Source of the DNA: a virus
Lineage: Duplodnaviria > Heunggongvirae > Uroviricota > Caudoviricetes
Strand: one strand, 5' to 3'
Virus record (IMG/VR): IMGVR_UViG_2872698443_000001
DNA length: 18,271 nt
Part shown: in pieces, positions 908-17,911 of the stretch
Numbering within the stretch: position 1 is the stretch's first letter
Layout: each line of letters begins with the position of its first letter
Notes under the pieces: model-generated
What the model saw: the letters and a program-made list of their open reading frames with translations, nothing else
Databases searched by the model: none
Told to the model about the DNA's origin: nothing
Program-made: the position numbers and the translations under genes

Positions 908-985
908 ATAAAAAAGGCGCTTCCCCATGCCGAGTAGCGCCTTTTTAATCAAGCATTTAGCTAACCTGAATTAGTTCATGCCGTA
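908..985. repeat. Left copy of ~78-bp imperfect direct repeat (att-type junction) carrying a fis-terminator-like hairpin and a diverged fis 3'-end remnant
   Basis: 908-947 matches 17912-17951 at 39/40 positions (AAAAAAGGCGC-N-TCCCCATGCCGAGTAGCGCCTTTTTA); 948-985 matches 17952-17989 at 28/38, including a perfect GTTCATGCCGTA block that is the reverse complement of the fis C-terminal codons. Confidence 0.8.
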
Positions 986-1114
986 CTGTCATATTAGCTG
1001 TTTTCATGCTTTTAGATGATTTTAATATTCATATAATAATCAATGTGTTGTATAAATTCATGCCTGTATATTGTTCCAGTGTTTTTCTTTGTTTATGCTA
1101 TTATGCAAGCAATT

Positions 1115-1137
1115 CTGTATAAACATTTGTATAAACA
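1115..1137. promoter_or_regulatory. Tandem TGTATAAACA decamers (x2), candidate integrase arm-type binding sites or int promoter element
   Basis: CTGTATAAACATTTGTATAAACA lies just upstream of int; an almost identical 23-bp block in the same orientation occurs at 17886-17908 at the opposite end of the element. Confidence 0.45.
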
Positions 1138-1155
1138 CTTTGGGCTGGGTGGTCT

Positions 1156-2376
1156 ATGGCTGGCGAACTTAACAAACTGAGCGACAGGAAGTTAAAGGGA
1201 TTACATGGTATCCCGGCCAGTAAGATTGAGTTCTATGCTGATGGTGCCGGGCTGAGCGCCAAGGTAACTAAAGCTGGTGGTATTAGCTGGGTGTTTACTT
1301 ACCGACTCGACGGGCAGAAGCTGCATCGTCTTACTCTGGGACGATACCCGGATATGAGCCTCAAAGAGGCCCGTTCTTCGCGTGATAAATGCCGCCAATG
1401 GCTGGCCTCAGGTAAAGATCCAAAGCACCAGTTGGCGCTGACCACTCAGGAAACGCTTAAACCGGTCACTGTTAAGGAAGCTATAGAATACTGGATACGC
1501 GAATATGCAGAAGAGAACCGCGCGAATGTTGAACGGCACAAAGCGGAGCTGCGAAAACACATTTATCCTTATATAGGGAAAATGGCGCTCGCTGACTGTG
1601 AAACACGATACTGGCTTGACTGCTTTGACAGGATGAAAAAGAAAACTCCAGTCGCCGCAGGTTATGTGTTCCAGATGTGCAAACAAGCCCTGAAATTCTG
1701 CCGGGTTCGTCGCTATGCTGTGAGTACCGCGCTTGAAGATTTAACAATTCCAGATGTCGGTAAAAAACAGGCAAAAAAAGACCGGGTATTAAACGATAAA
1801 GAGGCTGGCGATTTATGGGCTGCCATTTCCTCTGGCACTTGCTTCATGCCTTACTACACCAGGCTACTGACAATCTTAATGGTGTTTGGGTGCCGAACGC
1901 AGGAGGCCAGGCTATCAGAGTGGAGTGAATGGGATATGGATGCCTGGGTCTGGACAGTTCCCAAAGAGCACAGCAAGGGCGGCGAGAAGATTGTAAGACC
2001 TGTGCCGGATGCCATGCGCAAATTCATTGAAATACTGCATGATGAAACGAAACGATCCGGCCTTTTGCTTGGGTCGGTTAAAGGCAGTGAAGCGGTAAGT
2101 CAGTGGGGCCGCGGTGTTTATAAAAAGCTGGGGCATTCTGAACCATGGACACTGCACGATCTAAGACGAACTTTAGCAACGCATATGAATAATATGGGTA
2201 TAGCACCACACGTTGTCGAACAGTTGTTGGGGCACTCAATGCCGGGAGTTATGGCGATTTATAACCGTAGTCTGTACTTGCCTGAGAAATTGGATGCGTT
2301 GAATAAATGGTATGACAGACTTGATATTTTATCAGGTGGATTCACTAACATTGTTTTGTTGAATAGGGCTGAATAA
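1156..2376 (+). CDS. Tyrosine-type site-specific integrase (P4-like, 406 aa)
   Basis: Long ORF adjacent to the att repeat; C-terminal catalytic signatures (HDLRRT, GHSMPGVMAIYNRS with the presumptive catalytic Tyr); N-terminal region resembles the arm-binding domain of P4-family integrases. Confidence 0.9.
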   Translation: MAGELNKLSDRKLKGLHGIPASKIEFYADGAGLSAKVTKAGGISWVFTYRLDGQKLHRLTLGRYPDMSLKEARSSRDKCRQWLASGKDPKHQLALTTQETLKPVTVKEAIEYWIREYAEENRANVERHKAELRKHIYPYIGKMALADCETRYWLDCFDRMKKKTPVAAGYVFQMCKQALKFCRVRRYAVSTALEDLTIPDVGKKQAKKDRVLNDKEAGDLWAAISSGTCFMPYYTRLLTILMVFGCRTQEARLSEWSEWDMDAWVWTVPKEHSKGGEKIVRPVPDAMRKFIEILHDETKRSGLLLGSVKGSEAVSQWGRGVYKKLGHSEPWTLHDLRRTLATHMNNMGIAPHVVEQLLGHSMPGVMAIYNRSLYLPEKLDALNKWYDRLDILSGGFTNIVLLNRAE

Positions 2377-2923
2377 TGACTAGTTTTCTAAAATTGGGTA
2401 TTTTCGAGCGAGAAGCCAAAGCCCCGGAACTCAATATTAAACAACTTGCACTACTTATGTGTGGGGTAGATCCGACAGTTAAAACTGCTGATATCCCTGA
2501 GGCGAAAGTTGAAGCTTACAATATATACTATCGACAACTGAGTAGATGGTTATCAGCATCTAAATTATTTCGAGGTGGAAACTCAACAGCCTATCCCGCA
2601 GACTATATGTTTGCTCTGGCATATCCTCTTATTGATGAAGATATTACACCACAACCCATAAAGGACAGATGCCTTGCGGCGGTGGCTATAATTGCTAATC
2701 AAAACAAAGGAAAAGAGCATCTTTATGCTATGGGAGGGGATGAGCTTTTACAGGTCGGAATTGCATTGAAAAGCAGCAAACGCGGCTTGCATCGTAAAGA
2801 AGATGAAAAGGAATATAATGATAAATTAATGGGGATGCTGGTCAAGCTTATAGCACATAAGATAGGCCGGTAATGCTGCCAACTTACTGATTTAGTGTAT
2901 GATGGTGTTTTTGAGGTGCTCCA

Positions 2924-3199
2924 GTGGCTTCTGTTTCTATCAGCTGTCCCTCCTGTTCAGCTACTGACGGGGTGGTGCGTAACGGCAAAAGCACCGCCGG
3001 ACATCAGCGCTATCTCTGCTCTCACTGCCGTAAAACATGGCAACTGCAGTTCACTTACACCGCTTCTCAACCCGGTACGCACCAGAAAATCATTGATATG
3101 GCCATGAATGGCGTTGGATGCCGGGCAACTGCCCGCATTATGGGCGTTGGCCTCAACACGATTTTACGTCACTTAAAAAACTCAGGCCGCAGTCGGTAA
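2924..3199 (+). CDS. insA: IS1 InsA
   Basis: 91-aa [26 protein letters not shown]... recognised as IS1 InsA with its zinc-finger and HTH region. Confidence 0.95.
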
Positions 3200-3621
3200 C
3201 CTCGCGCATACAGCCGGGCAGTGACGTCATCGTCTGCGCGGAAATGGACGAACAGTGGGGCTATGTCGGGGCTAAATCGCGCCAGCGCTGGCTGTTTTAC
3301 GCGTATGACAGGCTCCGGAAGACGGTTGTTGCGCACGTATTCGGTGAACGCACTATGGCGACGCTGGGGCGTCTTATGAGCCTGCTGTCACCCTTTGACG
3401 TGGTGATATGGATGACGGATGGCTGGCCGCTGTATGAATTCCGCCTGAAGGGAAAGCTGCACGTAATCAGCAAGCGATATACGCAGCGAATTGAGCGGCA
3501 TAACCTGAATCTGAGGCAGCACCTGGCACGGCTGGGACGGAAGTCGCTGTCGTTCTCAAAATCGGTGGAGCTGCATGACAAAGTCATCGGGCATTATCTG
3601 AACATAAAACACTATCAATAA
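3118..3621 (+). CDS. insB: IS1 InsB (expressed as InsAB' transposase by -1 frameshift)
   Basis: 167-aa ORF recognised as IS1 InsB; overlaps insA in the -1 frame; frameshift site TTAAAAAAC at about 3173-3181. Confidence 0.9.
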
Positions 3622-3939
3622 GTTGGAGTCATTACCAGATAGGCCATTCGTTTGGCACCTCTAAAAAACCAAGCATCTCGGCTATTTTAAACGAACTATA
3701 TAAATTAGCTGATGAGGAAGGTATATCTAAAACTGGATTATCCAAATCAGCAATATATGATAAAATTCGCAAGGCATTAAATTCGATTTATTATACGGAA
3801 TGAATATTATTTTGCAGTGTTAGTGGGTATTATTTATATTTCATGTGAAAATACTAATTAATTATATTTGTTGGAGCTTTTGGCGATTCTATGATCGCCA
3901 AGGAGATTCAATTGTTATATTTGATGTTTATTACAGTTA

Positions 3940-4020
3940 CATTCAACAGCATTCAACAGCATTCAACGACACGTAATGACACGTAACGGCACCCGACAGC
4001 ACCTAACAATACCTAGCTCC
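3940..4020. repeat. Array of ~10-bp phased direct repeats (CATTCAACAG x3, CACGTAAYGR x2, CACCYRACA-like x2)
   Basis: Read directly: successive near-identical decamers with exact 10-bp spacing in the AT-rich intergenic region upstream of alpA. Confidence 0.6.
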
Positions 4021-4060
4021 ATCCACGGTCTCTACTAGGTCATTACTTGCTAACTTTTTC

Positions 4061-4120
4061 CATCTTTGTTCATGGTTATTCATCACTGTTCATCAGCGTT
4101 CATCATTGTTCATCTTTGTT
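4061..4120. repeat. Six phased CATC-NN-TGTT decamers (iteron-like, TGTTCAT core); candidate crr-like or regulatory protein-binding array
   Basis: CATCTTTGTT CATGGTTATT CATCACTGTT CATCAGCGTT CATCATTGTT CATCTTTGTT at exact 10-bp periodicity; the TGTTCAT core resembles the TGTTCACC iterons at 8571-8799, about 4.5 kb away. Confidence 0.5.
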
Positions 4121-4373
4121 ATGAACAATCCAAGGCGAATCAAATCGTTAGAGAACGGTGATCTTCGGCGAGTTATTGAAATTCATGATTTTTTCTCTCG
4201 CGACAGCCGTTGAAATTACTGTGGAAATTGTTTTCAACAGGGGAGCGTTATCTTGATGGAATTTCTATCTTTCAATGGAATTGCGTGTTCTTTTAAAGGA
4301 TTCCAGAATCAATGGAAATGCTGGTCGTTTATCCACTAATCTCTTCGCATAACATTGAAACAGTGGAGGCAGC

Positions 4374-4658
4374 ATGCAAAATATAACCTTTACCCCGCCA
4401 AATCCTGAACAACGCCGCACCCTTTTAGAAGAGTACGGCTTTAAGTTTGATCGCCGAATCCGTGAAGATGAATGCAGCGAGATCACCAGTCTTTCCCGTT
4501 CCAGCCGCTGGAAGATGGAACAGCAGGGGCGCTTCCCTCCGCGCTGTCACTTTGGCCGCAATAGCTGTGCTTGGCTTCTTTCGGATGTGCTCTGGTGGGT
4601 TCGTAATCCGCCAGCAGTAGAGAACGTCAATAACCCATACAGCCGTAAATCTGCTTAA
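4374..4658 (+). CDS. alpA: AlpA-family phage transcriptional regulator (94 aa)
   Basis: Translation contains the AlpA-type HTH region (ITSLSRSSRWKMEQQGRFPPRCHFGRNSCAWLLSDVLWW); GGAGG Shine-Dalgarno 5 nt upstream of the ATG. Confidence 0.85.
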   Translation: MQNITFTPPNPEQRRTLLEEYGFKFDRRIREDECSEITSLSRSSRWKMEQQGRFPPRCHFGRNSCAWLLSDVLWWVRNPPAVENVNNPYSRKSA

Positions 4659-4678
4659 TTAACCACAGGTAATCTGAG

Positions 4679-5371
4679 ATGAAAAAGATTAATGCCCTCC
4701 ACGGGCAGGGATTCGCTCACCCTGTAGCCAGCCAGCACGATATTTCAGCGAACCGTAAACAGGTTATTGCCGGTGACTGGTCGCCCATTAATCGTGGTGA
4801 ATTTACGCTTGCCGATCTGGGGTTGCGCCACAACGGTAACGGGCTGGTGTGGCTGCGTTCCGGCGTGTCCGTGCATGAGGCAGACCATGATGCAGGGATA
4901 AGCGGCAAGGACAAGACCAAAGGAAGGGTTAACGGCCTTCCTTTTGAATTTGTCGGCCAGTGGCAGGAATACCCGACTAAACGCAGCTTTGCCGTTTCAG
5001 TATCTACGGAACTACGGCGCCAGTATTACCCGGACGATGCCGCATTCAGTAAGGCAATGCGTGAGGCTGGTTATGTTCCGGTGCGCACTCGCAAACTGAC
5101 CGGAAAGGATGCTCGTTTTTGGCTGTACCGTGTAACGGGCAATGATAAGGGGGTTGTCGCAGCAGAATCCGCGCCACACAAGGCTTGCGCGCCAGTTGTC
5201 CAGACCATATCTAAGCCTCATCCGTGGTTTAAGCGTGTGGCACTCGATGGTAAATGGCAGTACGTCTACGCAGATCACATCCGCTTTCTGACTAAAAAGC
5301 GTCATCGCGTCGATGGTGTTCGGGTTCAGGGGTATACCGCTGGCGGGCTGAAAGTGGAGGCTATTGTATGA
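4679..5371 (+). CDS. Hypothetical protein (230 aa)
   Basis: Long ORF co-directional with alpA; its stop overlaps the next ORF start (ATGA). No family recognised. Confidence 0.6.
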   Translation: MKKINALHGQGFAHPVASQHDISANRKQVIAGDWSPINRGEFTLADLGLRHNGNGLVWLRSGVSVHEADHDAGISGKDKTKGRVNGLPFEFVGQWQEYPTKRSFAVSVSTELRRQYYPDDAAFSKAMREAGYVPVRTRKLTGKDARFWLYRVTGNDKGVVAAESAPHKACAPVVQTISKPHPWFKRVALDGKWQYVYADHIRFLTKKRHRVDGVRVQGYTAGGLKVEAIV

Positions 5372-5723
5372 CAGGCAAAACAAAGGCGGCCATGCCGGGC
5401 CGCCTGAGTCTCAACGCTTTACTGAAACATCGCCAGATTACCAGGCTTGCCGCTGGTGGTCAAACCTTGAGCCAACGAAATCCGTACGCACAAATTAACC
5501 GCGTACGTTTAATGTACGGAGATCGAGACAAAGGCGAACAGTATTCGGGTTCATGGCAAAACAACGTTAAACGTGGTTTAGAGGCTCCGACGAAAAACGT
5601 AGAGAGCTGCGAAGATAACCAACCCTCTTTAAGAGGGGAGCCTCTGCACAACTCATTAATAGTTGCGCAAAACAGACCCTTTTTAAGAGGGGCAGTCCAC
5701 AGCATTACGGGGAGTAACCCTGT

Positions 5724-5897
5724 TCAGCCTTTTGGCTCGATGCCGCGCTTATCAAGTTCACGGCGCAAAAGGCGTTTTATCCATCCCGACTTATTATCGT
5801 CACCGTCTTCTTTCATCGCTAAAGCGAGCCGCTCTGACAGTTCTTTATCGAGTCTGAGCTGCACAACATGGCGCTCTTTATTTTCGCTTGTTGACAT
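5724..5897 (-). CDS. Ribbon-helix-helix (CopG/Arc-like) small DNA-binding protein, 58 aa, antisense to the surrounding operon
   Basis: MSTSENKERHVVQLRLDKELSERLALAMKEDGDDNKSGWIKRLLRRELDKRGIEPKG shows a beta-strand then two helices typical of RHH proteins; AGGAG Shine-Dalgarno 6 nt upstream of the ATG (reverse complement of 5895-5908). Start chosen at an internal Met of the 95-aa track ORF. Confidence 0.6.
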   Translation of the reverse strand: MSTSENKERHVVQLRLDKELSERLALAMKEDGDDNKSGWIKRLLRRELDKRGIEPKG

Positions 5898-5940
5898 TGT
5901 CAACTCCTGTGGTCTAGTCTGTAGTGGAGTTGACAATGTA
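5894..5940. promoter_or_regulatory. Perfect 14-bp inverted repeat (ACATTGTCAACTCC / GGAGTTGACAATGT) with 18-bp spacer overlapping the RHH gene start; candidate operator
   Basis: Arms at 5894-5907 and 5926-5939 are exact reverse complements; each arm contains a TTGACA hexamer and an SD-ATG arrangement. Confidence 0.5.
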
Positions 5941-6037
5941 CTACATTGCATGACTTTTAGTAAAGCAAAGCCCGGCAGTGGTGGAACACTAACCGGGCCT
6001 CTAACCACCACCGTTAGCGAAAGTAACGAGGCAGCTA

Positions 6038-6228
6038 TGAAAGATCATATCACACACCCGCAAGGGCGGAAGTCCTACATCTGGCGTTTTCTTGCACTGA
6101 GCGCCATCGGTCGCAACGTCATTCACATCACAGCTAACACTGAGCGCGAAGCCCGTGAGCAATCACCGGCTGGCTGCGTGATGGTATTCGCTGGCCGTCT
6201 ACCAGTTCAGGAGGTTCGCTATGCGTGA
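6038..6228 (+). CDS. Small hypothetical protein (63 aa), possible true 3' portion of the 286-aa track ORF
   Basis: Internal ATG at 6038 preceded by GAGG; its stop overlaps the start of the next ORF (ATG 6221, TGA 6226-6228), consistent with translational coupling. Weak evidence. Confidence 0.3.
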
Positions 6229-6415
6229 GCCAATCTGTCTGGAGCAGGCCGAATATAAATCAGCGCTGGCTTCATCACTTTACGAAACCATCCTGGAAAA
6301 AGCCTCTGCTGAATGTTCAGAAACGCTGCTGAATCTGATTTCTATTGCGTGTGATTTTAATCAGGAAATTCACCGGGCATTAATCGCCGAGCTGCACATG
6401 GGAGAGACAAAGTGA
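6221..6415 (+). CDS. Small hypothetical phage protein (64 aa)
   Basis: ORF in a chain of overlapping small genes immediately upstream of the replication gene. Confidence 0.5.
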   Translation: MREPICLEQAEYKSALASSLYETILEKASAECSETLLNLISIACDFNQEIHRALIAELHMGETK

Positions 6416-6627
6416 GACAGGTTCCTTTTGAAGTCCTGATGCACGCTGAAAATGCCCTTTCAGAAAGTGAGTGCGCAATGTCTGTGCTAAGCATGTGGAT
6501 TGACAGCATTCCCGACGGTGAAGAACACCGTGAGGAAGCGTGCCGTGTCGGAGCAATTATGTCTCTGCTGCACAAATCTATCGGCGAGCTGGTGAAGGCG
6601 CGGGAGGCTTACAGTGCGAAATCCTGA
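6412..6627 (+). CDS. Small hypothetical phage protein (71 aa, GTG start)
   Basis: GTG start preceded by GGAGAG; overlaps the previous stop, indicating translational coupling. Confidence 0.5.
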   Translation: MRQVPFEVLMHAENALSESECAMSVLSMWIDSIPDGEEHREEACRVGAIMSLLHKSIGELVKAREAYSAKS

Positions 6628-6805
6628 AATCAACGATAGCTGGAAGGATAAGCGCGGCGAACTGGTCACGGTGAAAGATAACGCATTTAACCGGGTAACG
6701 TTTGTGCGTGATGGTTACGATTTTCCGTGCATCTTTCCGCTGGAAAGGTTCGTTAAAGAGTTCACTTTCGTTAGCTGGGGGCTGAAAGATGAAAAACGCG
6801 CCTAA
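6614..6805 (+). CDS. Small hypothetical phage protein (63 aa, GTG start)
   Basis: GTG start preceded by GGGAGG; overlaps the start of the replication gene. The pattern resembles small proteins I recall next to P4-family replication genes, but that is from memory and uncertain. Confidence 0.5.
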   Translation: MRNPEINDSWKDKRGELVTVKDNAFNRVTFVRDGYDFPCIFPLERFVKEFTFVSWGLKDEKRA

Positions 6806-8540
6806 TGTGAAAACCCTCCCGCGCGACAAAATGGAGGAGGCCATCATCTTTGCTGGAACGGGAGCATGGAAAGCCGCTCAGGATTACCAGAAAGGGAAGG
6901 GCGAGCATGGAGACGATGTTCCGCCTGTGGTTCTGGATCACACTCAACTGGCGGAATTGCCACACCTGCGCATTGTTGATAAAGGCCGTCGATTTGCCCG
7001 TGTCTGTCAGGCCGGGCTTATCGAGCAAAACCAAATCAGCATGATTGCAAATAAGCTGTGTGAGGCTGGCGTTACCAATGCTGAGTTTATCAACGAAAAA
7101 GGCGAGAAAGAGGACTGGACGCCATTGATGAAACGTCTGGAAGACGAGCCACTTATGGTGACTACGAGGGGAAGTGCTACGCCTGCGCTTAACCAGATGG
7201 GAGCCAGCCAGCGCGGGGAAGTTCTGCTTGCTCATTACGATGGCAATCTGGCGATCCATGCTGATTCCGACACGGTTCATCATTACAACGGCGTGGTGTG
7301 GGTTCCGCTTTCGGATAAAGAGCTGCAGCGAGAAATGGCGCAGATTTTTATTGATTCCGAAGTCGCCTATTCGCAGAACGCGATTAAATCCGCTGTCGAT
7401 ACAATGAAGCTGGGCCTCCCGGTAATGGGTAACACAGCCCGTAACCTGATTGGTTTCAGCAACGGGGTTTTTGATACCCGGTTAGGCCAATTTCGACCGC
7501 ATGATAAAAAGGACTGGCTTATCGTTGCGAGCGAATTGCCATTCAGCGAACCAGCAGAAGGTGAAACTCTGGCAACCCATGCGCCTAACTTCTGGAAATG
7601 GCTCCGCCGCTCTGTGGCGGATAATGACCGAAAAGCAGACCGCGTACTGTCTGCGCTGTTTATGGTGCTGGCGAACCGGTACGACTGGCAGCTGTTTCTT
7701 GAGGTAACGGGGCCGGGCGGAAGTGGTAAAAGTGTTATGGCTGAGATCTGCACGATGCTGGCGGGCAAGGCCAACACCGTATCGGCGAGCATGGCGGCGC
7801 TGGAGAACCCAAGGGAAAGGGCGCTGGTAGTGGGCTATTCGCTGATTATCATGCCGGATATGACCCGGTACGCTGGCGACGGCGCAGGGATTAAAGCTAT
7901 CACTGGCGGGGATAAGGTAGCCATTGACCCTAAACACAAAGCGCCATATTCAACCCGTATACCTGCGGTGGTGCTGGCCGTCAATAACAATGCCATGTCG
8001 TTCAGCGACAGAAGCGGGGGGATTTCCAGACGGCGGGTGATTTTCAACTTCTCCGAAGTGGTACCGGAAAACGAACGCGATCCTATGCTGGCCGAGAAGA
8101 TTGAAGGTGAGCTGGCTGTAATCATTCGCCACCTGCTCACTCGCTTTTCCAGGCAGGACGAAGCCAAACAGCTTTTGCATGAGCAGCAAAAATCAGAAGA
8201 AGCGCTGGCCATTAAACGTGAAGGGGATTCACTGGTGGACTTTTGCGGCTACCTGATGGCTTCGGTGGTTTGTGATGGAATGCTGATTGGTAATGCCGAG
8301 ATCGTGCCATTCAGCCCGCGCCGTTATCTGTATCACGCTTATCTGGCTTACATGCGGGCCAATGGTCTTAGCAAGCCTGTATCGTTAATGCGGTTCGGTA
8401 CGGATATGCCAGGCGCAATGGCTGAATATGGCAAGGAGTACCAGAAGCGCAAAACTAAACATGGCATAAGATCGAACGTCACCCTGCATGATGATTCAGA
8501 AGACTGGATGCCAATGTGTACCGATACAACAAAAGAATAA
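6789..8540 (+). CDS. P4-alpha-like replication protein with SF3 helicase domain (583 aa); no obvious primase domain
   Basis: Walker A GPGGSGKS in a D5/P4-primase-C-terminal-type helicase context; followed immediately by an array of TGTTCACC iterons, the recognition sequence of P4 alpha. Confidence 0.85.
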   Translation: MKNAPNVKTLPRDKMEEAIIFAGTGAWKAAQDYQKGKGEHGDDVPPVVLDHTQLAELPHLRIVDKGRRFARVCQAGLIEQNQISMIANKLCEAGVTNAEFINEKGEKEDWTPLMKRLEDEPLMVTTRGSATPALNQMGASQRGEVLLAHYDGNLAIHADSDTVHHYNGVVWVPLSDKELQREMAQIFIDSEVAYSQNAIKSAVDTMKLGLPVMGNTARNLIGFSNGVFDTRLGQFRPHDKKDWLIVASELPFSEPAEGETLATHAPNFWKWLRRSVADNDRKADRVLSALFMVLANRYDWQLFLEVTGPGGSGKSVMAEICTMLAGKANTVSASMAALENPRERALVVGYSLIIMPDMTRYAGDGAGIKAITGGDKVAIDPKHKAPYSTRIPAVVLAVNNNAMSFSDRSGGISRRRVIFNFSEVVPENERDPMLAEKIEGELAVIIRHLLTRFSRQDEAKQLLHEQQKSEEALAIKREGDSLVDFCGYLMASVVCDGMLIGNAEIVPFSPRRYLYHAYLAYMRANGLSKPVSLMRFGTDMPGAMAEYGKEYQKRKTKHGIRSNVTLHDDSEDWMPMCTDTTKE

Positions 8541-8570
8541 AGGCGGGGAAAATTAAAAGTAATGGGATAA

Positions 8571-8799
8571 GTGTTCACCACTGTTCACCATGTATAAAAA
8601 TCATTAAATAACAATATGTTAATGGGTGAACACTTTTTTATGAAGTGTTCACCAAGTATTCACCAGTTCACCTTTAAAGGGCTTTTCTTTTAAAAGGTGA
8701 AGGGTTAAGGTGAACACTAGTGAATACTTAAAATCATAGTCTTCACCCTGTAACCGAATGAATTTAAATAGGAAAAATGCAAAGGTGAACAGGTGAACA
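8571..8799. repeat. Origin-type iteron array: about 10 copies of TGTTCACC / GGTGAACA in both orientations (P4 ori-like)
   Basis: Copies at about 8572, 8582, 8625 (rc), 8646, 8657 (variant), 8665 (variant), 8709 (rc), 8720 (rc variant), 8784 (rc) and 8791 (rc), in AT-rich DNA just downstream of the helicase gene. Confidence 0.8.
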
Positions 8800-8837
8800 C
8801 TTAAACGCATATTTTTAAATTTTACAGGAGGGGCTGT

Positions 8838-9098
8838 ATGCCAATCACTAACGAGGAACGTAGGGAACACCTGGAAAAGTTTGGTTTAACCAGTCTTGAT
8901 ACAACGCACACTGCCGATTACCGTAAAGCCCTTGAAGAGGAAGCGTTCTTTTGGGATGACCCACACGGTTTTGTGATGCACACGCTTTCCGGAGAGCGAC
9001 TCGTTACGAATACAGAACAGCTGGATGCCTTGCTCGAGCATCTGGAAGGATACCGTGCTTTATTGCCTGACCCTCCGGAATGGATGAGAGAAGATTAA
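8838..9098 (+). CDS. Small acidic hypothetical protein (86 aa)
   Basis: ATG preceded by AGGAGGGG; the protein has many more Asp/Glu than Lys/Arg residues. No family recognised. Confidence 0.55.
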   Translation: MPITNEERREHLEKFGLTSLDTTHTADYRKALEEEAFFWDDPHGFVMHTLSGERLVTNTEQLDALLEHLEGYRALLPDPPEWMRED

Positions 9099-9104
9099 TC
9101 AAGT

Positions 9105-9125
9105 GGCCTCATCACAGATGAGGCC
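9105..9125. terminator. Hairpin between convergent genes (8-bp stem GGCCTCAT / ATGAGGCC, loop CACAG); possible bidirectional terminator
   Basis: Perfect inverted repeat between the stop of 8838-9098 (+) and the stop of 9137-9658 (-); flanking T-tracts are weak. Confidence 0.4.
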
Positions 9126-9136
9126 TAATATGAGAT

Positions 9137-9658
9137 TTAACGATGTAATTCATTAATTTTGTCGCTGACGTTTTTTTTCCTTAACTCATTCAAGAAAAAA
9201 TAATTAACAAGTATCACCCTAAATATCGCTGCGAATTGCGCGATAGCCAAGAAAGCTACAAATGTAAAATTAAGGTATTTAACATAAGGGATATAGTTAA
9301 CATCAACCAGGCCTTTAAGTAAAGGGGCGAAGAATTGTATAAGAAGAACAGCCATTAATACAACAGCTGATACCATGACGATCTCAACTAATTCGCTTAA
9401 ATAATTAGCATCTTTATGTGATTCCTTCCCCTCGGCTTTATTTGATTGAGGTGAGTCCCTCTTATTTAATATTCTCGCCATCGCCCTTGGATAAATAATT
9501 GCTATCCAGGCGCCTATAATGGCAAATATTATAGATGAAATATTAAGCAGGGCACCTAGCGTGTCCTTGTAATCATTATAGCCAAGCGTTGTTATTCGGC
9601 CTCTAAATATAATGGCCATCAAGGCTGCTATAAGCACATAAATTATATATTTTATCAT
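9137..9658 (-). CDS. Small integral membrane protein with four predicted transmembrane helices (173 aa); second gene of cargo operon
   Basis: Four hydrophobic stretches (about residues 4-18, 34-56, 88-113, 129-153) separated by charged loops; its start is 1 nt after the upstream gene's stop (TGA-C-ATG on the minus strand); visibly AT-rich. Confidence 0.75.
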   Translation of the reverse strand: MIKYIIYVLIAALMAIIFRGRITTLGYNDYKDTLGALLNISSIIFAIIGAWIAIIYPRAMARILNKRDSPQSNKAEGKESHKDANYLSELVEIVMVSAVVLMAVLLIQFFAPLLKGLVDVNYIPYVKYLNFTFVAFLAIAQFAAIFRVILVNYFFLNELRKKNVSDKINELHR

Positions 9659-9659
9659 G

Positions 9660-10694
9660 TCACCCCCCTGCTGGTGGTGTCTTCATTTTGTTTAACAACT
9701 CTGCTCTGCGTTTTATTATAGCAGATAACAGTCTTTCTGGAGCTATTATGTGGTTATCTTTTCGCCGAACATTTAGCTCGGTTTCAAAAGCAACATTTGC
9801 ACCGCTAAGCCAGATAGATTTCCCGTCACTATATTTGAAGCCAACATTCCTTATAGGTGAGCTATTACCTAACTCATTATAGTTTTTAATAATTAATTTT
9901 AGCTGTGATTCTGTTGGTTTGAATTCCATCTCGTGAAAGATCGTTCTTTCCTGTGTGTTTGCTGGTGTGTTTTTTAACAGGCCAGAAAAAACTCTTTCAA
10001 TTATTTTTCTATCATCTGGGGCTAAATAAGTTATTTTTTCTCTTTTTAATATCTTTGTGATTCTGTGAATGTTATTAATTAACTCTGCCTGAACCTCATC
10101 ATATTTCATTCCTACAGCATAAAATTTAGGGTTTAATTTTTCTGAATCAGAGTTTTTCTTAGCATCAGCGGAAAAGCCAATTACTTTATCATCATTATCG
10201 AGCACGCGATATGGGGATTTGTTTGCAAGATATCCATTGAGATAGTTATCAAGATTACCCTTTCCCATTAGAGAGTGTTCAAATTTGATTGAAGCAAAAG
10301 CATTTTCATCAGGAATGAACCAAAAGTAACAAGGAAATCCTGGAATAGCCTTATCGACATCAAATCCAGTGGTTAACATATCCACTTTACCGGGTTTAGC
10401 TAGCGGTGGCATACCATATATCACCCCACTATCATTGGGAACCTCTGCCCAAAGAGTTAAAAGGTGGTCTCCGTACTGCCTGTCTGACGCCAAACCACAA
10501 AAATAGGTATTGCGGATGTCCTCTTCCTTTTCGGCTTGGTAGGTAAGAGTATTGATGAACTCTCTTCCATCAGAAGCCCAACCTTTCAGTTTAAGCAATG
10601 TATCAGTGGTGTTGCCTAAGTCTGGTTTTTTAGAGCCGTGCTTGTAATATCCGCATCTATTGATATCAAAAAACTTCAGTTTTGCAGTTAGCAT
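9660..10694 (-). CDS. Hypothetical soluble protein (344 aa); first gene of cargo operon, candidate sensor or effector of a defence system
   Basis: Long ORF with a good RBS (AAAGGAAAATAA-ATG); visibly AT-rich compared with the flanking capsid and replication genes; no nucleotidyltransferase, ATPase or other motif recognised by eye. Confidence 0.75.
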   Translation of the reverse strand: MLTAKLKFFDINRCGYYKHGSKKPDLGNTTDTLLKLKGWASDGREFINTLTYQAEKEEDIRNTYFCGLASDRQYGDHLLTLWAEVPNDSGVIYGMPPLAKPGKVDMLTTGFDVDKAIPGFPCYFWFIPDENAFASIKFEHSLMGKGNLDNYLNGYLANKSPYRVLDNDDKVIGFSADAKKNSDSEKLNPKFYAVGMKYDEVQAELINNIHRITKILKREKITYLAPDDRKIIERVFSGLLKNTPANTQERTIFHEMEFKPTESQLKLIIKNYNELGNSSPIRNVGFKYSDGKSIWLSGANVAFETELNVRRKDNHIIAPERLLSAIIKRRAELLNKMKTPPAGG

Positions 10695-10708
10695 TTATTT
10701 TCCTTTTT

Positions 10709-10736
10709 ATTATCACTACCGAGAGGCTGTGGTTAA
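10709..10736 (-). promoter_or_regulatory. Candidate sigma70 promoter for the cargo operon (extended -10 GTGATAAT, -35 TTAACC, 16-nt spacer)
   Basis: Reverse complement of 10709-10716 is GTGATAAT and of 10731-10736 is TTAACC; positioned just upstream of the 344-aa gene. Motif-level only. Confidence 0.3.
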
Positions 10737-10845
10737 ATAATCTAACAAAAAAATTCTTTTGTAAATTATTTGTTCTCATGTTTATTCGTGATTGCCTCTG
10801 TCTATGTACGGGGTTTTCTTTATATTTTTCATGTATATCTTTAAG

Positions 10846-10933
10846 AGTGGCACTCAGACGTGAGCCGCCACTGGCCGTTAAGTCAAGCTGTAGCGAGTAC
10901 AGCCTGCGAGAGGCAGAAAAAGATTTAACGGCC
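10846..10933. other. GC-rich nested inverted-repeat element in an otherwise AT-rich divergent intergenic region
   Basis: Outer 9-bp stem GGCCGTTAA (10873-10881) / TTAACGGCC (10925-10933) enclosing hairpins GCTGTA-GCGAG-TACAGC and CTGC-GAGAG-GCAG; a further GTGGC/GCCAC stem at 10846-10870. Confidence 0.35.
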
Positions 10934-10988
10934 TCCCCTCCAAGCGCTGGTTTCACGTCTCAACGTTAATTGTTACGGAAACCACTCC

Positions 10989-12155
10989 ATGAAGAAACTA
11001 CTCGAATTACGCCAGCAGAAAGCCGCACTCAAAACACAGATGCGTTCCATGCTGGACAAAGCCGACACCGAAAAGCGCAGCCTGAACGAAGAAGAGGGCC
11101 AAAAGTTCGATGAACTCCGCGCCCAGGCTGATGCGCTTGAAGTTGAAATCACCCGTCTAGAAGCCGTCGCCGACGATCAGCGCAATCTGCCTGGTACTTC
11201 CGTTGAAGGTGAGCCAGTAAGCAACGACGAGCTGCGCCACTACATCATGACAGGTGATACCCGTTCTCTCTCCACGCTGGTGCAGGCTGATGGCGGCTAT
11301 ACCGTTATCCATGAGCTGGACAAAGAGATTATGCGCCAGTTGCAGGATGATAGCGTGATGCGCTCCATCGCAACGGTGAAGACCACCAAAACCAACGAAT
11401 ACCAGAAGCTGGTATCTGTGGGCGGCACTACCGTTAATCGTGGTACCGAAGGTGAGGCACGTACCGAAACCAGTACGCCGAAGATGGAGCGCGTTGATAT
11501 CAAACTCAACCCGATCTACGCCTACCCGAAAACCACTCAGGAGATTCTCGACTTCTCCGAGGTGGATATTTTGGGCTGGCTGTCTTCTGAAATTGCCGAC
11601 ACCTTCACCGCGACCGAAGAAAGCGACTTTGTGAACGGCGACGGTGATAAAAAATCCAAAGGCTTCCTGTCTTACCCTCGCGCGGCCACTGCCGACAAAA
11701 CCCGTCCGTTCGGTACGCTGGAGAAGATGGAAGCGGCTGACGTTTCCTCTGATGGCCTGATCGACCTGCTGTATAAGCTGAAAGCCAAATACCGCAAAAA
11801 CGCCGTATGGGTGATGAACTCCAACACCGCAGCCAAACTGCAAAAGCTGAAAAACGGCAACGGGGATTACATCTGGCGCGATCGTCTGGTTGCCGGTTCT
11901 CCCGATACGCTGCTGGGCCGTCCTGTTCAGTATCTGGAAACCATGCCGGATGCGGAGGCAGGTAAAGCATTCCTCGCGGTAGGCGACTTCAAGCGCGGCT
12001 ATTTCATCGTGGATCACACCACTGGCGTGCGTACCCGCCCTGACAACATCACCGAACCGGGTTTCTACAAGGTGCATACCGATAAATACCTGGGCGGCGG
12101 CGTGGTGGACTCCAACGCCATCAAGGTGCTTGAGCTTTCAGGCTCCGGTTCCTGA
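10989..12155 (+). CDS. HK97-fold major capsid protein (388 aa) with N-terminal coiled-coil scaffolding (delta) region
   Basis: N-terminal charged coiled-coil segment followed by a capsid-like body; size and composition typical of HK97-family major capsid proteins; followed by an intrinsic terminator. Confidence 0.9.
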   Translation: MKKLLELRQQKAALKTQMRSMLDKADTEKRSLNEEEGQKFDELRAQADALEVEITRLEAVADDQRNLPGTSVEGEPVSNDELRHYIMTGDTRSLSTLVQADGGYTVIHELDKEIMRQLQDDSVMRSIATVKTTKTNEYQKLVSVGGTTVNRGTEGEARTETSTPKMERVDIKLNPIYAYPKTTQEILDFSEVDILGWLSSEIADTFTATEESDFVNGDGDKKSKGFLSYPRAATADKTRPFGTLEKMEAADVSSDGLIDLLYKLKAKYRKNAVWVMNSNTAAKLQKLKNGNGDYIWRDRLVAGSPDTLLGRPVQYLETMPDAEAGKAFLAVGDFKRGYFIVDHTTGVRTRPDNITEPGFYKVHTDKYLGGGVVDSNAIKVLELSGSGS

Positions 12156-12165
12156 TTTGACGTTT

Positions 12166-12187
12166 AAGGGGCTTCGGCCCCTTTTTG
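12166..12187 (+). terminator. Rho-independent terminator after the capsid gene
   Basis: AGGGGC-TTCG-GCCCCT hairpin followed by TTTTT. Confidence 0.7.
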
Positions 12188-12206
12188 CCCTCTGTGGAGT
12201 CCAGTA

Positions 12207-12767
12207 ATGAAAACAATCGATTTTGAAATCCGTACCTCCGAAGTGAGCGCCAGCAACAAAAAGCTGGTGGGCTATGCCGTACGCTGGAACAGTCTCTCTG
12301 AAATTATCTGGGACGAGTTCCGCGAGCAGTTTGCGCCGGGAGCGTTTAAAGACAGCCTGGCATCCGGTAGCGATGTGCGTGCGCTGTACGAGCATAACTA
12401 TACCCAGCTGCTGGGCCGCACTAAATCCGGCACGCTGGTGCTGTCAGAAGATGATACCGGGCTGCGCTTCGAGCTGACCCCGCCGAATACCCAGCTTGGC
12501 AACGATGTGCTGGAGCTGGTGGAGCGTGGGGATATCTCCGGCATGAGCTTTGGTTTCCGGGCGCTGAAAGAGGCGTGGGATATCGGCCAGTCTCCATACC
12601 TGCGCACTGTTACCGCAGCCGAACTGCGGGAGATTACCGTTACCTCTATGCCTGCTTATCCTGAGTCTGGAGTGGAAATCGCGCACCGTTCGCTTTTCTC
12701 CCAACATCCTGAACTGTGCCGCGCTGGCGATAACCGTCGCCGCTGGGCTGAATTAGCGGGGCTCTGA
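12207..12767 (+). CDS. HK97-family prohead (head maturation) protease (186 aa)
   Basis: Size, position within the head module and sequence pattern consistent with HK97-type prohead proteases; GGAG RBS upstream. Confidence 0.8.
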   Translation: MKTIDFEIRTSEVSASNKKLVGYAVRWNSLSEIIWDEFREQFAPGAFKDSLASGSDVRALYEHNYTQLLGRTKSGTLVLSEDDTGLRFELTPPNTQLGNDVLELVERGDISGMSFGFRALKEAWDIGQSPYLRTVTAAELREITVTSMPAYPESGVEIAHRSLFSQHPELCRAGDNRRRWAELAGL

Positions 12768-12768
12768 T

Positions 12769-14010
12769 ATGTGGAATATCTGGCCGTTTGGCCGTAAGTC
12801 TGAACCCTCTGAGCAGCGCAGCATGACCATTGATGAATTTCTGGCGATGGCAGGGATTCCAAATACCGGATCAGGCGAGTATGTGTCTGCGGGTACTGCG
12901 GAATCTCTGCCGGCGGTCATGAACGCCGTATCAGTTATCAGTGAGGCGGTGGCAACAATGCCCTGCTACCTCTACCGCGTGCGTAATGATAACGGGCGTG
13001 AGGCGCGAGAATGGCTGAGCAATCATCCGGTGGATTTTCTGCTGAACGAGCAGCCGAACGACTGCCAGACACCTTACCAGTTTAAACGCACGATGATGCG
13101 CCATTGTCTGCTGAATGGTAACGCCTATGCGGTGATCCAGTGGGGCCGCGACGGCCAGCCGCAATCCCTGCATCCGTATGCGCCGGGGGCGGTTGTTCCT
13201 GAGCGTATCGGCCAGCATAAGTACAAATACACCGTTACTGAACCGTTTACCGGGGCAGTGCGCACCTACTTGCAGGAAGAGATTCTGCACCTGCGTTACT
13301 CGACCGATGATGGTTTTCTGGGGCGCTCGCCGATCACCATCTGCCGTGAGGCGCTGGGGTTAGGTCTGGCCCAGCAGCGCCACGGTGCCAGCATTATGAA
13401 AGATGGCATGATGGCGGCGGGCGTAGTCACGACTGCTGAATGGCTCGATAGTGTGAAGGGTAAGCAGGCGCTGGACGCGCTTGAGCGCTACAAAGGTGCC
13501 AGAAATGCCGGTAAAACGCCGATCCTTGAAGGTGGCATGGACTATAAGCAGCTTGGCATGAGCAATCAGGATGCTGAGTGGTTGGCCTCCCGGCGCTTCA
13601 CCATCGAAGATATTGCCCGCATGTTTAACGTTTCTCCCATCTTCTTGCAGGAATACAGCAACAGCACCTACAGCAATTTTAGTGAGGCGAGCCGCGCCTT
13701 TCTTACCATGACAATGCGCCCGTGGCTGGCGAACTTTGAGCAGCAGATTAAATCCGCGTTGCTGGTGGCATCGCCTGTACCCGGAATCCGTTATCAGGTG
13801 GAGTTCGACTCTGCCGATCTTCTTCGAGCCACTCCAACCGAACGCTACGCAACTTATGAGCGCGGTATCAAGAACGGGATCATGAACCCGAACGAAGCCC
13901 GCGAACGCGAAGGGATGCCGCCGCGTGAAGGTGGCGACGAATACAGCCAGGCATGGAAGCAGGAAGTGAAGGTCAGTACCGATTCTGAGACTAAGGAGGA
14001 TGCGTTATGA
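12769..14010 (+). CDS. Phage portal protein, HK97 family (413 aa)
   Basis: Size, position in the head module and conserved central region typical of HK97-family portal proteins; its stop overlaps the start of the next gene. Confidence 0.85.
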   Translation: MWNIWPFGRKSEPSEQRSMTIDEFLAMAGIPNTGSGEYVSAGTAESLPAVMNAVSVISEAVATMPCYLYRVRNDNGREAREWLSNHPVDFLLNEQPNDCQTPYQFKRTMMRHCLLNGNAYAVIQWGRDGQPQSLHPYAPGAVVPERIGQHKYKYTVTEPFTGAVRTYLQEEILHLRYSTDDGFLGRSPITICREALGLGLAQQRHGASIMKDGMMAAGVVTTAEWLDSVKGKQALDALERYKGARNAGKTPILEGGMDYKQLGMSNQDAEWLASRRFTIEDIARMFNVSPIFLQEYSNSTYSNFSEASRAFLTMTMRPWLANFEQQIKSALLVASPVPGIRYQVEFDSADLLRATPTERYATYERGIKNGIMNPNEAREREGMPPREGGDEYSQAWKQEVKVSTDSETKEDAL

Positions 14011-14342
14011 GGCCGGGAGGATTAAGGCAACGCGTCACGATTCAGAATTTTACTACCAGCCGAACCCCTTCTGGTGGCGTCATTCAGGAATGGTACGACG
14101 TTGCGACAGTCTGGGCAGAAGTGAAGGGGATCAGTGGCCGTGAGCTGATTGCTGCGGGTGCTGAAATGTCCGAGGTTACATTTCGTATGTGGATACGTTA
14201 CCGCTCTGACGTAACCAGCGCCAGCCGGATCATCTGGAAACAGAAAGGACATGATGCAAAAGCATTTGATATTCAGTCGGCAATTCCTGATGAAAAGGCT
14301 ACCAGGCTGGAGTTGCTTTGTAAGGGAGGGCTTAAGCCGTGA
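14007..14342 (+). CDS. Head closure / head-tail joining protein (111 aa)
   Basis: Small protein translationally coupled to the portal gene; sequence pattern (RVTIQ..., ATVWAEV..., ELLCKGG) resembles phage head-tail joining proteins. Confidence 0.7.
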   Translation: MRPGGLRQRVTIQNFTTSRTPSGGVIQEWYDVATVWAEVKGISGRELIAAGAEMSEVTFRMWIRYRSDVTSASRIIWKQKGHDAKAFDIQSAIPDEKATRLELLCKGGLKP

Positions 14343-14638
14343 GTGAACTAATTGGGCTTGATGAGGCAAAACTTCACTGCCGCATCGATAACGATGATTC
14401 CTATGAAGATGCAATGATTCAGGCATACATCGAAGCGTCACTGGAAGTCTGCCAGAAGCATATCGGTAAACGGTTCGGTGCTGGCCTGGAATTCACTCCT
14501 GCCATCAAGATCGGATGCCTTATGTACGTTTCCCAACTGTACGAATACCGCACGATGATTAGTGATGTGGAGGCGAAAGAGATCCCCCTTGCTATCTCTG
14601 CATTGTGGTCTGTGTATCGCGATGTGGGGGTGTACTGA
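14339..14638 (+). CDS. gp6-like head-tail connector protein (99 aa, GTG start)
   Basis: GTG start after AAGGGAGGG; N-terminal LDEAKLHCRIDNDD...DAMIQAYIEAS pattern typical of gp6-like connector proteins. Confidence 0.7.
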   Translation: MSELIGLDEAKLHCRIDNDDSYEDAMIQAYIEASLEVCQKHIGKRFGAGLEFTPAIKIGCLMYVSQLYEYRTMISDVEAKEIPLAISALWSVYRDVGVY

Positions 14639-15081
14639 TGCCGTGGCAACCAATGCGCCGGTGCACTGAGCCGGGATGCAATAAGCGGGTGAAGTCTGGT
14701 AAGTGCGATGAGCACAAGCGGGAAGCCTGGCGGGCGGAAGATGCCAGACGCGGCCACCGTCGCGCCCGTGGTTACTCAGCATCATGGGAGAAGTACCGCG
14801 CTCAGTATCTGAAACGTCAGCCGCTATGTGTCGAGTGCCAGAAGCTGGGCCTCTACGTTCCTGCAAAGATTGTCGATCACATCATCCCTATCGACGGCGG
14901 TGATGATGTTCTGTTCTGGCCTGAGTGGAATCACCAGCCGTTATGCCAGATGCATCATAACCAGAAGACCACGCAGCAAGACCCCATCACCAAAGCGAAC
15001 CGTAAGGCAGGGCTGTACCGAGAGCAGGAAGAGCGTGCAGCCCATCGCAATGACTGGATGTATGAGGCCAGCAATGAATGA
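14638..15081 (+). CDS. HNH endonuclease (packaging-associated), 147 aa
   Basis: Cys-rich HNH region (CNKRV...C...HK...C.EC...DHIIPI...H...N...C..HH); start taken at the ATG overlapping the upstream stop (TGATG); located directly upstream of terS and terL. Confidence 0.85.
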   Translation: MPWQPMRRCTEPGCNKRVKSGKCDEHKREAWRAEDARRGHRRARGYSASWEKYRAQYLKRQPLCVECQKLGLYVPAKIVDHIIPIDGGDDVLFWPEWNHQPLCQMHHNQKTTQQDPITKANRKAGLYREQEERAAHRNDWMYEASNE

Positions 15082-15226
15082 GAAAGACGTGGTGAATCTG
15101 TACCGATCATTGATGCGCTGCCGTGATGGCTTCATGCAGGGGAGAAGCAGGCGCAATGAGCGCCAGCCTGTGCAGCGTATGAGCGAGCGTGAACGGGAGT
15201 TGCGGGAATGCTTCCGCAACCGCTGA
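15074..15226 (+). CDS. Possible small basic protein (50 aa) in the HNH-terS intergenic region
   Basis: ATG overlapping the HNH stop; Arg-rich translation MNEKDVVNLYRSLMRCRDGF...; no RBS assessed. Low confidence. Confidence 0.25.
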   Translation: MNEKDVVNLYRSLMRCRDGFMQGRSRRNERQPVQRMSERERELRECFRNR

Positions 15227-15356
15227 CAGGCCGCATGGACGGGGTGGGGGAGGTTTTCAGGACAAACCTCAAGGTGCCAGGCACCGCCCGCCCCCTCAAA
15301 TTTTTACGCACGGTGATTTTTTTGAAAATAAAACGCGATGGAAACGAGAAATTTTT

Positions 15357-15713
15357 ATGGCAAGACCACCAAAACCGCCAGCTTACCTTGATGAGTTAGC
15401 CGCGCAGCAGTGGAAAGCGAAAGCGAAGCAACTGGCCGAGCGTGGCGATCTGACACCCGCCGACTGGAACAACCTTGAGCTTTTTTGCGTCAACTATTCG
15501 ATGTACCGCAAAGCAGTGGAAGACCTTGCCAGCCGTGGGTTCAGCATTGTTAACAGCCAGGGGGGCGAGAGCCGAAATCCTGCACTGAGTGCAAAGGCCG
15601 ATGCTGAAAAAATCATGATTAAAATGTCGTCGCTGCTGGGCTTTGATCCGGTAAGCCGCCGCCGTAACCCGGTAGAAACGGAAGAGGAGGACGAGCTTGA
15701 CCGTCTGGAATGA
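15357..15713 (+). CDS. Terminase small subunit, P27-like (118 aa)
   Basis: From internal Met: MARPPKPPAYLDELAAQQWKAKAKQLAERGDLTPADWNNLELFCVNYSMYRKA... matches the P27-family TerS pattern. The 56 codons upstream in the track ORF are low-complexity and probably not translated. Confidence 0.8.
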   Translation: MARPPKPPAYLDELAAQQWKAKAKQLAERGDLTPADWNNLELFCVNYSMYRKAVEDLASRGFSIVNSQGGESRNPALSAKADAEKIMIKMSSLLGFDPVSRRRNPVETEEEDELDRLE

Positions 15714-17358: not shown

Positions 17359-17508
17359 GCATAAAGCGTAAAGGAAGAATTATCTTGAGGTTATCAGGAA
17401 TATAAAATTGCTCTAGATCACTACATTGCTGTCGTGGAATAGGAAGAGTCTGTTTTGTTGTTTATAAATGTATTGCAGGGCTTTTCCTGTTCAAACTTCT
17501 GGTGAAAT

Positions 17509-17817: not shown

Positions 17818-17842
17818 ACACTTTGGTTACTAAAGGCATAAA

Positions 17843-17870
17843 GCATCAGAATTGTTCTGGTGCTTTTTTG
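17843..17870 (+). terminator. Rho-independent terminator after the DUF3892-like gene
   Basis: GCATCAGAA-TTG-TTCTGGTGC hairpin (one G-U pair) followed by TTTTTTGTTTGTT. Confidence 0.65.
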
Positions 17871-17885
17871 TTTGTTCAGCCAAAG

Positions 17886-17908: not shown

Positions 17909-17911
17909 ATA

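Follow-up and report, generated by a model that had tools for sequence, protein, structure and literature searches.

Two groups of described replication origins come closest to the locus considered here, those of phage P4 and those of PICIs. In the P4 record (NC_001609), six copies of the 'ori type 1 repeat' are annotated in ori (9310–9413) and ten in crr (4291–4590). If GGTGAACA is written as '>' and TGTTCACC as '<' on the plus strand, and the gaps between them are given as numbers of bp, P4 ori reads > 2 > 3 > 14 < 35 > 2 >, and a P4 crr unit reads > 6 < < < 35 > >.

In PICIs, the conserved origin is the region 3' of rep, where two sets of iterons flank AT-rich DNA (PMC6092414). EcCICFT073's pri-rep-ori segment maintains a temperature-sensitive plasmid in E. 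coli at the restrictive temperature (Fillol-Salom et al., 2018, PMC6092414), and deletion of either rep or ori impairs plasmid maintenance (PMC6092414). This shows that rep and ori of EcCICFT073 need no further island gene in E. coli. Capsid-forming PICIs (cf-PICIs) of the type studied below have been reported from several genera and replicate once they are induced (bioRxiv 10.1101/2025.02.11.637232), and two relatives of our island, KpCIDSM30104 (L007) and vB_KppS-Ant, have been induced and packaged. The origin is not treated in the cf-PICI papers.

The Island and Its Genes

The window (the whole 18,271-bp stretch of DNA that was analyzed) contains a complete island, which we annotated from the identical region of E. 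coli TUM9754 and by Pfam. The island and its initiator gene are as follows:

922–17951, plus strand: the whole island, a capsid-forming PICI of 17.0 kb located between yhdJ and fis
6789–8540, plus strand: the initiator gene, 583 aa, with Pfam matches to D5_N, DUF5906, Pox_D5 and PPV_E1_C

The island is bounded by a 26-bp direct att repeat (922–947 and 17926–17951). Its genes run rightward and include int (1156–2376), alpA (4374–4658), an Icd-like gene, a DUF4222 gene, rep, ori and two accessory genes, as well as a complete head and packaging module consisting of an HK97-type capsid, protease, portal, connectors, HNH, TerS and TerL. cf-PICIs are defined by their own capsid and packaging genes, by the lack of tail or lysis genes and by a length of 10–18 kb. 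The island has such a module, carries neither tail nor lysis genes and falls within this size range; it is thus a cf-PICI of the EcCIGN02175/KpCIDSM30104 type.

Several other features of the island should be mentioned. int is followed by a gene behind which an IS1 element or fragment (2924–3621, transposase match) is inserted; in E. coli TUM9754, the identical island has this element annotated as IS1A, and there it truncates a hypothetical gene. The 286-aa ORF 5368–6228 matches its family, the Icd-like cell-division inhibitors, only in the last ~50 residues, and it is probably over-extended, since PGAP restricts its annotation in the related island to a short Icd-like gene. Past the origin, an AT-rich pair of minus-strand genes (9137–9658 and 9660–10694) matches components A (1.9e-71) and B (7.8e-23) of PDC-M18, a candidate defence system of PADLOC. 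This cassette (9137–10694) has no Pfam or NCBIfam match and occupies a variable accessory slot whose content differs among related islands. Paired TGTATAAACA repeats are located just inside both ends of the island near att (~1105–1135 and 17880–17910) and are likely arm-type sites for the P4-family integrase.

Two 10-bp-phased arrays were revealed upstream of alpA, one at 3924–4015 (CATTCAACAG-like, about eight units) and the other at 4045–4126 (TGTTCATC-like, five to six units). The TGTTCATC-like array is made of one-mismatch words and terminates in a TTGTTATGAACAA palindrome. Phased arrays built of a different word are present in EcCICFT073 (locus L033, 7181–7252 and ~7445–7500). The arrays upstream of alpA are probably sites for a regulator of this gene and not tied to origin specificity. 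They are unlikely to be a second alpha-type site, equivalent to P4 ori, given that several relatives lack them and that they show no covariation with the binding domain of the initiator.

An Array of Twelve Iterons Downstream of the Initiator Gene

The segment 8541–8837 is intergenic and separates the stop codon of ORF 6789–8540 from the start of ORF 8838–9098. The initial annotation had placed a P4-type origin here, with about ten iterons immediately downstream of the helicase gene. The last base of the helicase stop codon is indeed 8540, and 31 nt separate it from the first iteron, which begins at 8572. Seven exact matches to TGTTCACC/GGTGAACA occur in the 18,271-bp window, every one of them within 8572–8799. 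Three read TGTTCACC on the plus strand (8572, 8582 and 8646) and four read GGTGAACA on the same strand (8625, 8709, 8784 and 8792). The GC content is 33% across 8550–8849, as compared with 49–57% in the helicase gene, so that the description of an octamer repeated in both orientations within ~230 bp of AT-rich DNA was accurate. The assignment of the octamer to the P4 type I iterons was equally correct, as exactly TGTTCACC is annotated as 'ori type 1 repeat' in the P4 GenBank record.

The octamer is expected 0.64 times per window by chance, and none of 200 dinucleotide-preserving shuffles reached seven copies. Chance or low complexity as the source of the repeats is thus ruled out by the shuffles (a mean of 0.64 versus seven). 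The exact iterons of the complete island are confined to a single cluster of 228 bp; since the whole island lies inside the window, the absence of a second cluster of exact iterons is real.

Besides the exact copies, we found three with one mismatch at 8657 (TATTCACC), 8665 (AGTTCACC) and 8740 (TCTTCACC) and two with two mismatches at 8696 (GGTGAAGG) and 8719 (AGTGAATA). The latter two occupy positions predicted by the layout of the array and are kept in relatives. The total is therefore 12 sites (seven exact and five degenerate) instead of the ten or so counted before. The region consists of the following elements:

8549–8571, no strand: left outer AT-rich flank AAAATTAAAAGTAATGGGATAAG, the mirror of 8800–8822 (inverted repeat I1)
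8572–8589, plus strand: outer iteron pair of the left unit, TGTTCACC ac TGTTCACC (8572–8579 and 8582–8589); column majority 0.94–0.98 in 12 relatives
8590–8624, no strand: left 35-bp AT-rich spacer, a candidate DNA-unwinding element; 35 bp long in 12 of 12 relatives, mean AT content 76%, variable in sequence
8625–8632, minus strand: single inverted iteron of the left unit (GGTGAACA on the plus strand), present in 11 of 12 relatives
8633–8645: 13-bp spacer before the left triplet, invariant in length in 12 relatives
8646–8672, plus strand: inner triplet of the left unit, TGTTCACC aag TATTCACC AGTTCACC (starting at 8646, 8657 and 8665)
8673–8695, no strand: dyad centre, 23 bp, A/T-rich, the least conserved part of the region (column identity 0.67)
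8696–8726, minus strand: inner triplet of the right unit, GGTGAAGG gttaa GGTGAACA ct AGTGAATA (starting at 8696, 8709 and 8719)
8740–8747, plus strand: single inverted iteron of the right unit, TCTTCACC, preceded by a 13-bp spacer (8727–8739)
8748–8783, no strand: right 36-bp AT-rich spacer; 36 bp long in 12 of 12 relatives, mean AT content 78%
8784–8799, minus strand: outer iteron pair of the right unit, GGTGAACA GGTGAACA
8800–8826, no strand: right outer flank CTTAAACGCATATTTTTAAATTTTACA, conserved across genera (column identity 0.83), which mirrors 8549–8571
8649–8870, minus strand: 73-aa ORF, not a gene; in-frame stops in 11 of 13 aligned relatives

On the plus strand the whole array reads < 2 < 35 > 13 < 3 < 0 < [23-bp centre] > 5 > 2 > 13 < 36 > 0 >. 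It is composed of two six-iteron units that lie in inverted orientation around 8684–8686, each with three direct iterons, 13 bp, one inverted iteron, an AT-rich spacer of 35 or 36 bp and two direct iterons. The mirror symmetry reaches ~23 bp past the outer iterons, and in inverted repeat I1 the segment 8549–8579 pairs with 8792–8822 (31 nt, 77% complementary). A further inverted repeat, I12 (8667–8678 with 8690–8701), is carried by the dyad centre, the sequence of which is replaced in KpCI/vB_KppS-Ant. Single-strand folding of the region yields a single long but imperfect hairpin (–50.4 kcal/mol, z = –8.1), which simply reflects the dyad symmetry. Only two 30-mers of the whole window are less stable than 8593–8622, a segment of the left spacer. 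The right outer flank (8800–8826) may serve as a tract for helicase entry or for unwinding.

The gaps between sites were then compared with those of P4 ori, as the initial annotation had recommended. They are 0, 3, 13, 35 and 2 bp in the left unit, 5, 2, 13, 36 and 0 bp in the right unit and 2, 3, 14, 35 and 2 bp in P4 ori; both units thus share their six-iteron layout with P4 ori. In global alignments, the left unit shows 74% identity to P4 ori and 77% to the ori-like unit of a P4-like element from Erwinia (z = 11–13 against shuffles in these comparisons); the right unit reaches 63–67% with ori and 64–68% with crr.

No DnaA box was found anywhere in the window and no IHF consensus in the iteron region. 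A scan of 8300–9200 revealed no consensus of a sigma-70 promoter or of a terminator, and an Rfam search of the window matched no family.

The 73-aa minus-strand ORF that overlaps the array had been dismissed as an artefact, and its interruption in most relatives bears this out. The homologous frame is open only in L006 and L004, which are the two relatives closest to the window among the 13. Moreover, the ORF has no Pfam match, and PGAP annotates no gene for it in the E. coli genomes in which the region occurs. It is a by-product of the AT-rich repeats.

The Initiator Lacks the Primase Part of P4 Alpha

The product of ORF 6789–8540 is composed, in this order, of an N-terminal domain (aa 1–133), D5_N, an SF3 helicase core and a C-terminal winged-helix origin-binding domain (aa 479–575). 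Residues 134–581 are 51% identical to residues 327–775 of P4 alpha, which comprise its helicase and origin-binding part. Residues 479–575 match the origin-binding domain of P4 alpha in the PDB (1KA8) with E=2e-25, in agreement with the earlier assignment of this gene as the initiator.

The N-terminal part is different. Neither Zn_Ribbon_Prim nor Toprim was detected by Pfam in the 583-aa initiator, whereas P4 alpha contains both (residues 30–299), and no primase was found elsewhere in the island. The replicon is therefore not self-sufficient in the way that the P4 replicon is, and the name 'helicase/initiator' fits this protein better than the database label 'DNA primase'. Residues 1–133 have no match in Pfam or NCBIfam and a sole match in PHROG, to a family of unknown function. 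Comparison of these residues with the P4-type primase region by hhalign gave a probability of 0.1%, and a profile search of the PDB gave nothing significant. The single-sequence AlphaFold model of this domain was poor (pLDDT 48).

It can be added that the N-terminal domain, encoded by 6789–7187, stands in the place of the Zn-ribbon/Toprim primase of P4 alpha, and that the N-terminal domains of the initiator homologs are of two unrelated types. A Toprim domain is retained in the homolog from locus L014 and the full P4-type primase in that from L031.

Among close homologs, a protein from a Citrobacter freundii MAG is 100% identical to the initiator. The helicase of K. pneumoniae ATCC 13883 (= DSM 30104, the host of KpCIDSM30104) is 98% identical to it, and that of vB_KppS-Ant, an induced 16.5-kb 'phage', is 98.5% identical.

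The Iteron Word Changes Together With a Segment of the Binding Domain

To compare the region among relatives, we scanned one genome per species and found 26 loci with relatives of the initiator (56–100% identical). In 25 of them an AT-rich region (32–40% GC) with a repeated word follows straight after the stop codon. Twelve non-redundant sequences that use GGTGAACA, from several enterobacterial genera, were compared column by column. The majority fraction was 0.948 in the iteron columns versus 0.763 in the spacer columns (p=2e-14). The lengths of the spacers (35, 13, 13 and 36 bp) never vary among these 12 sequences, while their nucleotide sequences do.

The iteron words of the different loci fall into six or more classes (GGTGAACA, GGTAGACA, GGTGGAGA, GCGGACA, GGTGGACA and GGTAGATA), and the palindromic layout is retained in most loci with other words. 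When the loci were arranged by iteron word and by the segment of the binding domain that corresponds to residues ~549–560 of the window protein, the sorting was nearly block-diagonal. For instance, KRKTKHGIRSN is paired with GAAC, KRKQCTRGPDKGRTISN with AGAC and IRKKSTKGNMRSN with GGAG. That all twelve sites change together with one segment of the protein would be hard to explain unless the domain binds them, and the predicted binding of the initiator to the iterons is indirectly supported by this covariation of word and segment. By analogy with other winged-helix proteins, we infer that residues ~549–560 form the beta-hairpin wing of the binding domain.

Two loci from one MAG, L022 and L030, illustrate the same relation. 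Their binding domains are nearly identical except for residues 549–560 and the C-terminal tail, and their iterons differ. They are located on contigs 24 and 9 of the Enterobacterales SMAGNO137 MAG, with GGTGAACA and GGTGGAGA as the respective iterons. The initiators of these two islands in one genome diverge chiefly in the wing segment, as if a switch of specificity had served to avoid incompatibility.

The classical PICI EcCICFT073 encodes a Pri-Rep that is 41% identical to the initiator over its full length, the N-terminal domain included (585 aligned residues, E=4e-155). The gene order is the same as in the window: a DUF4222 gene, a gene for a 584-aa 'DNA primase family protein' and a gap of 288 bp. 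With the word TGTCTACC, this gap reads < 1 < 40 > 12 < 3 < 1 < [25] > 3 > ... 12 < 40 > 1 >.

Probable Origin Function and Its Alternatives

Taken together, sequence comparison and the published experiment on a homologous module indicate that 8549–8826 is very probably the vegetative replication origin of the cf-PICI. The function proposed in the initial annotation thus gains support from the layout of P4 ori, which is present twice, from the covariation in 26 loci and from the ability of the homologous EcCICFT073 module to replicate a plasmid.

We suggest the following mechanism. After induction of the island, the C-terminal domain of the initiator would bind the iterons, with the specificity for the origin determined mainly by residues ~549–560. 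The initiator would assemble on both units and melt at least one AT-rich segment, the least stable one being the left 35-bp spacer. It would then load itself as a hexameric helicase, plausibly with one hexamer per unit, and two hexamers facing opposite ways would give bidirectional theta replication. Since the initiator lacks the Zn-ribbon/Toprim primase, priming would probably be performed by the host primase or by the N-terminal domain. The idea of a double hexamer is plausible by analogy with other SF3 helicases (PMC12137749); among them, poxvirus D5/E5 forms an SF3 double hexamer (PMC12137749).

As the main alternative, the region could be merely a crr-like auxiliary site (an enhancer or an anchor), with initiation occurring elsewhere, for example inside the helicase gene or at the TGTTCATC array. 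The array does lie at the position of P4 crr, directly 3' of an alpha-type gene, and in P4 the cluster at this place is an auxiliary site and not the one where replication starts. Its right unit resembles crr units (64–68% identity, as given above) and has the orientation of crr relative to the gene. Both units, however, have the six-iteron layout of P4 ori and not that of crr. In P4, an alpha-internal ori2 that functions with crr is said to have been described by Tocchetti et al. in 1999. The one-mismatch array upstream of alpA is 4.6 kb away and holds roughly the place of P4 ori relative to the AlpA homolog, but such arrays are absent in L008, L010, L025 and L027. In EcCICFT073 they are unlike its own iteron, and so the alpA arrays do not covary with the binding domain. 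In addition, rep of EcCICFT073 together with the region downstream of it suffices for plasmid replication. We consider the crr-like role as the sole function of the region to be very unlikely.

It is also conceivable that the iterons act chiefly as an operator or copy-control site, through autoregulation of the operon, control of the gene at 8838–9098 or handcuffing and incompatibility, and not as the start of replication. Dual roles of this kind are known for plasmid iterons. The downstream gene differs among relatives while the array is conserved, and promoter consensus sequences are found neither within nor beside the array, which argues against such a main role even though the array lies between rep and a following gene of the same orientation, and no terminator was found there. 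The presence in one MAG of two islands with different specificities is consistent with incompatibility avoidance; on the other hand, the fixed length of the AT-rich spacers and the experiment on the homolog favour an origin. A purely regulatory function therefore seems very unlikely, and any regulatory role of the array would most likely come on top of the origin function instead of replacing it.

Finally, a packaging (cos/pac) or recombination site, or a region that encodes the 73-aa protein or an RNA, is extremely unlikely: this is repeat-rich intergenic DNA in a packaged element with the minus-strand ORF open, but the linear record of the induced vB_KppS-Ant begins just before terS, the att sites lie at 922–947 and 17926–17951, the ORF is interrupted in most relatives and no Rfam family was matched.

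Significance of the Locus

Origins of this kind, the iteron and elements of this type have all been published already, and the current picture of satellite replication is unchanged. We found no description in the literature of the exact P4 ori layout in each unit, of the fusion of two inverted units at the crr position, of an alpha-type protein that lacks the primase or of the link between the wing segment and the specificity class. These undescribed features of the origin in the window are refinements.

For a family of capsid-forming satellites that pass from one genus of gut enterobacteria to another, the results pin down the cis-acting origin together with its initiator. This can be used in annotation, in the construction of minimal replicons and in predicting incompatibility between satellites residing in the same cell. 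A short wing segment appears to set the origin specificity, which can be tested. P4 and the cf-PICI of the window share the iteron and should therefore cross-react.

A broader view can be put forward only tentatively, and we would sooner doubt it than accept it as it stands. The palindromic origin and the combination of P4 ori with a distant crr required in cis might be two forms of one machine, in which two opposed units load two SF3 hexamers head to head. The units would lie side by side in PICIs and cf-PICIs and would be joined by alpha-mediated looping in P4. A swap of a wing of ~12 residues would suffice to create new, mutually compatible replicon specificities (six or more classes), and the core formed by the helicase and the binding domain would work with or without a fused primase. 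The long-unexplained need of P4 for crr may then reflect a requirement for two inverted units.

Comparison With Known Systems

Several systems can be compared with the origin of the window. One group comprises the palindromic origins of SF3-helicase viruses (SV40 large T antigen and poxvirus D5/E5). As in the system described here, the SF3 helicase possesses an origin-binding domain of its own; the sequences of these origins are unrelated to that of the window. By analogy with such helicases, a dyad-symmetric origin suggests head-to-head loading of two hexamers. P4 alpha-type proteins are not known to form double hexamers.

Relatives with other arrangements were also observed. In Erwinia rhapontici (L031), a full-length P4-type alpha of 773 aa with a primase is accompanied by two units (21–123 and 6487–6589), an ori-like one 4.3 kb upstream of the alpha stop codon and a crr-like one 2.1 kb downstream of it. 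This is the two-part arrangement of P4, and no array adjoins the alpha gene. Pasteurella phage Pmp7 (L005), which is satellite-like and has an initiator 35% identical to ours, contains a single unit (3000–3110) between rep and int that resembles the right arm of the window array. This suggests that one iteron unit can suffice in some lineages.

P4 ori has the same octamer as the units of the window, the same six-iteron layout and the same spacings (13–14 bp and a 35-bp AT-rich spacer), and its cognate initiator has a winged-helix binding domain homologous to that of the window protein. With respect to the initiator gene, the left unit is oriented like P4 ori and the right unit like crr. However, P4 ori is a single unit that lies 2.3 kb upstream of the alpha start codon (~4.7 kb from the stop codon) and also needs crr, whereas in the window two inverted units are fused directly 3' of the initiator gene. 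P4 ori also contains 'type 2' repeats, which were not found in the window array, and P4 alpha bears its own primase, which frees P4 replication from host DnaG and which the window initiator lacks. The label 'P4-type origin' given in the initial annotation thus holds for the iteron, the layout and the binding domain, and not for a two-part origin or an initiator with its own primase.

P4 crr is placed similarly to the window array, directly downstream of alpha, and ends 46 nt from the alpha stop codon. It comprises two units of ~100–120 bp with about ten type I iterons in both orientations, and it has in common with the window units a module made of an inverted iteron, 35 bp and an iteron pair. 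Yet the units of crr are repeated in direct orientation at a distance of 180 bp (one iteron, three inverted iterons, 35 bp and two iterons), while those of the window are inverted, abutting and ori-like. The locus of the window is the P4 iteron in the P4 ori layout at the crr position, and it joins units that P4 keeps kilobases apart.

By membership, the closest family is the Pri-Rep/ori replicon of PICIs, known from Gram-negative PICIs such as EcCICFT073 and from SaPIs, in which the origin lies directly 3' of rep, as it does here. The palindromic layout (2-1-3 / 3-1-2) is common to EcCICFT073 and the window array, and the island context (int, alpA, Icd-like, DUF4222 and rep) matches as well. 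EcCICFT073 differs in its iteron word (TGTCTACC/GGTAGACA) and in its long spacers (40 bp versus 35–36 bp here). It is a classical PICI that uses the capsids of its helper, whereas the island of the window makes its own capsid, and it is the window allele, not EcCICFT073, that carries the iteron of P4.
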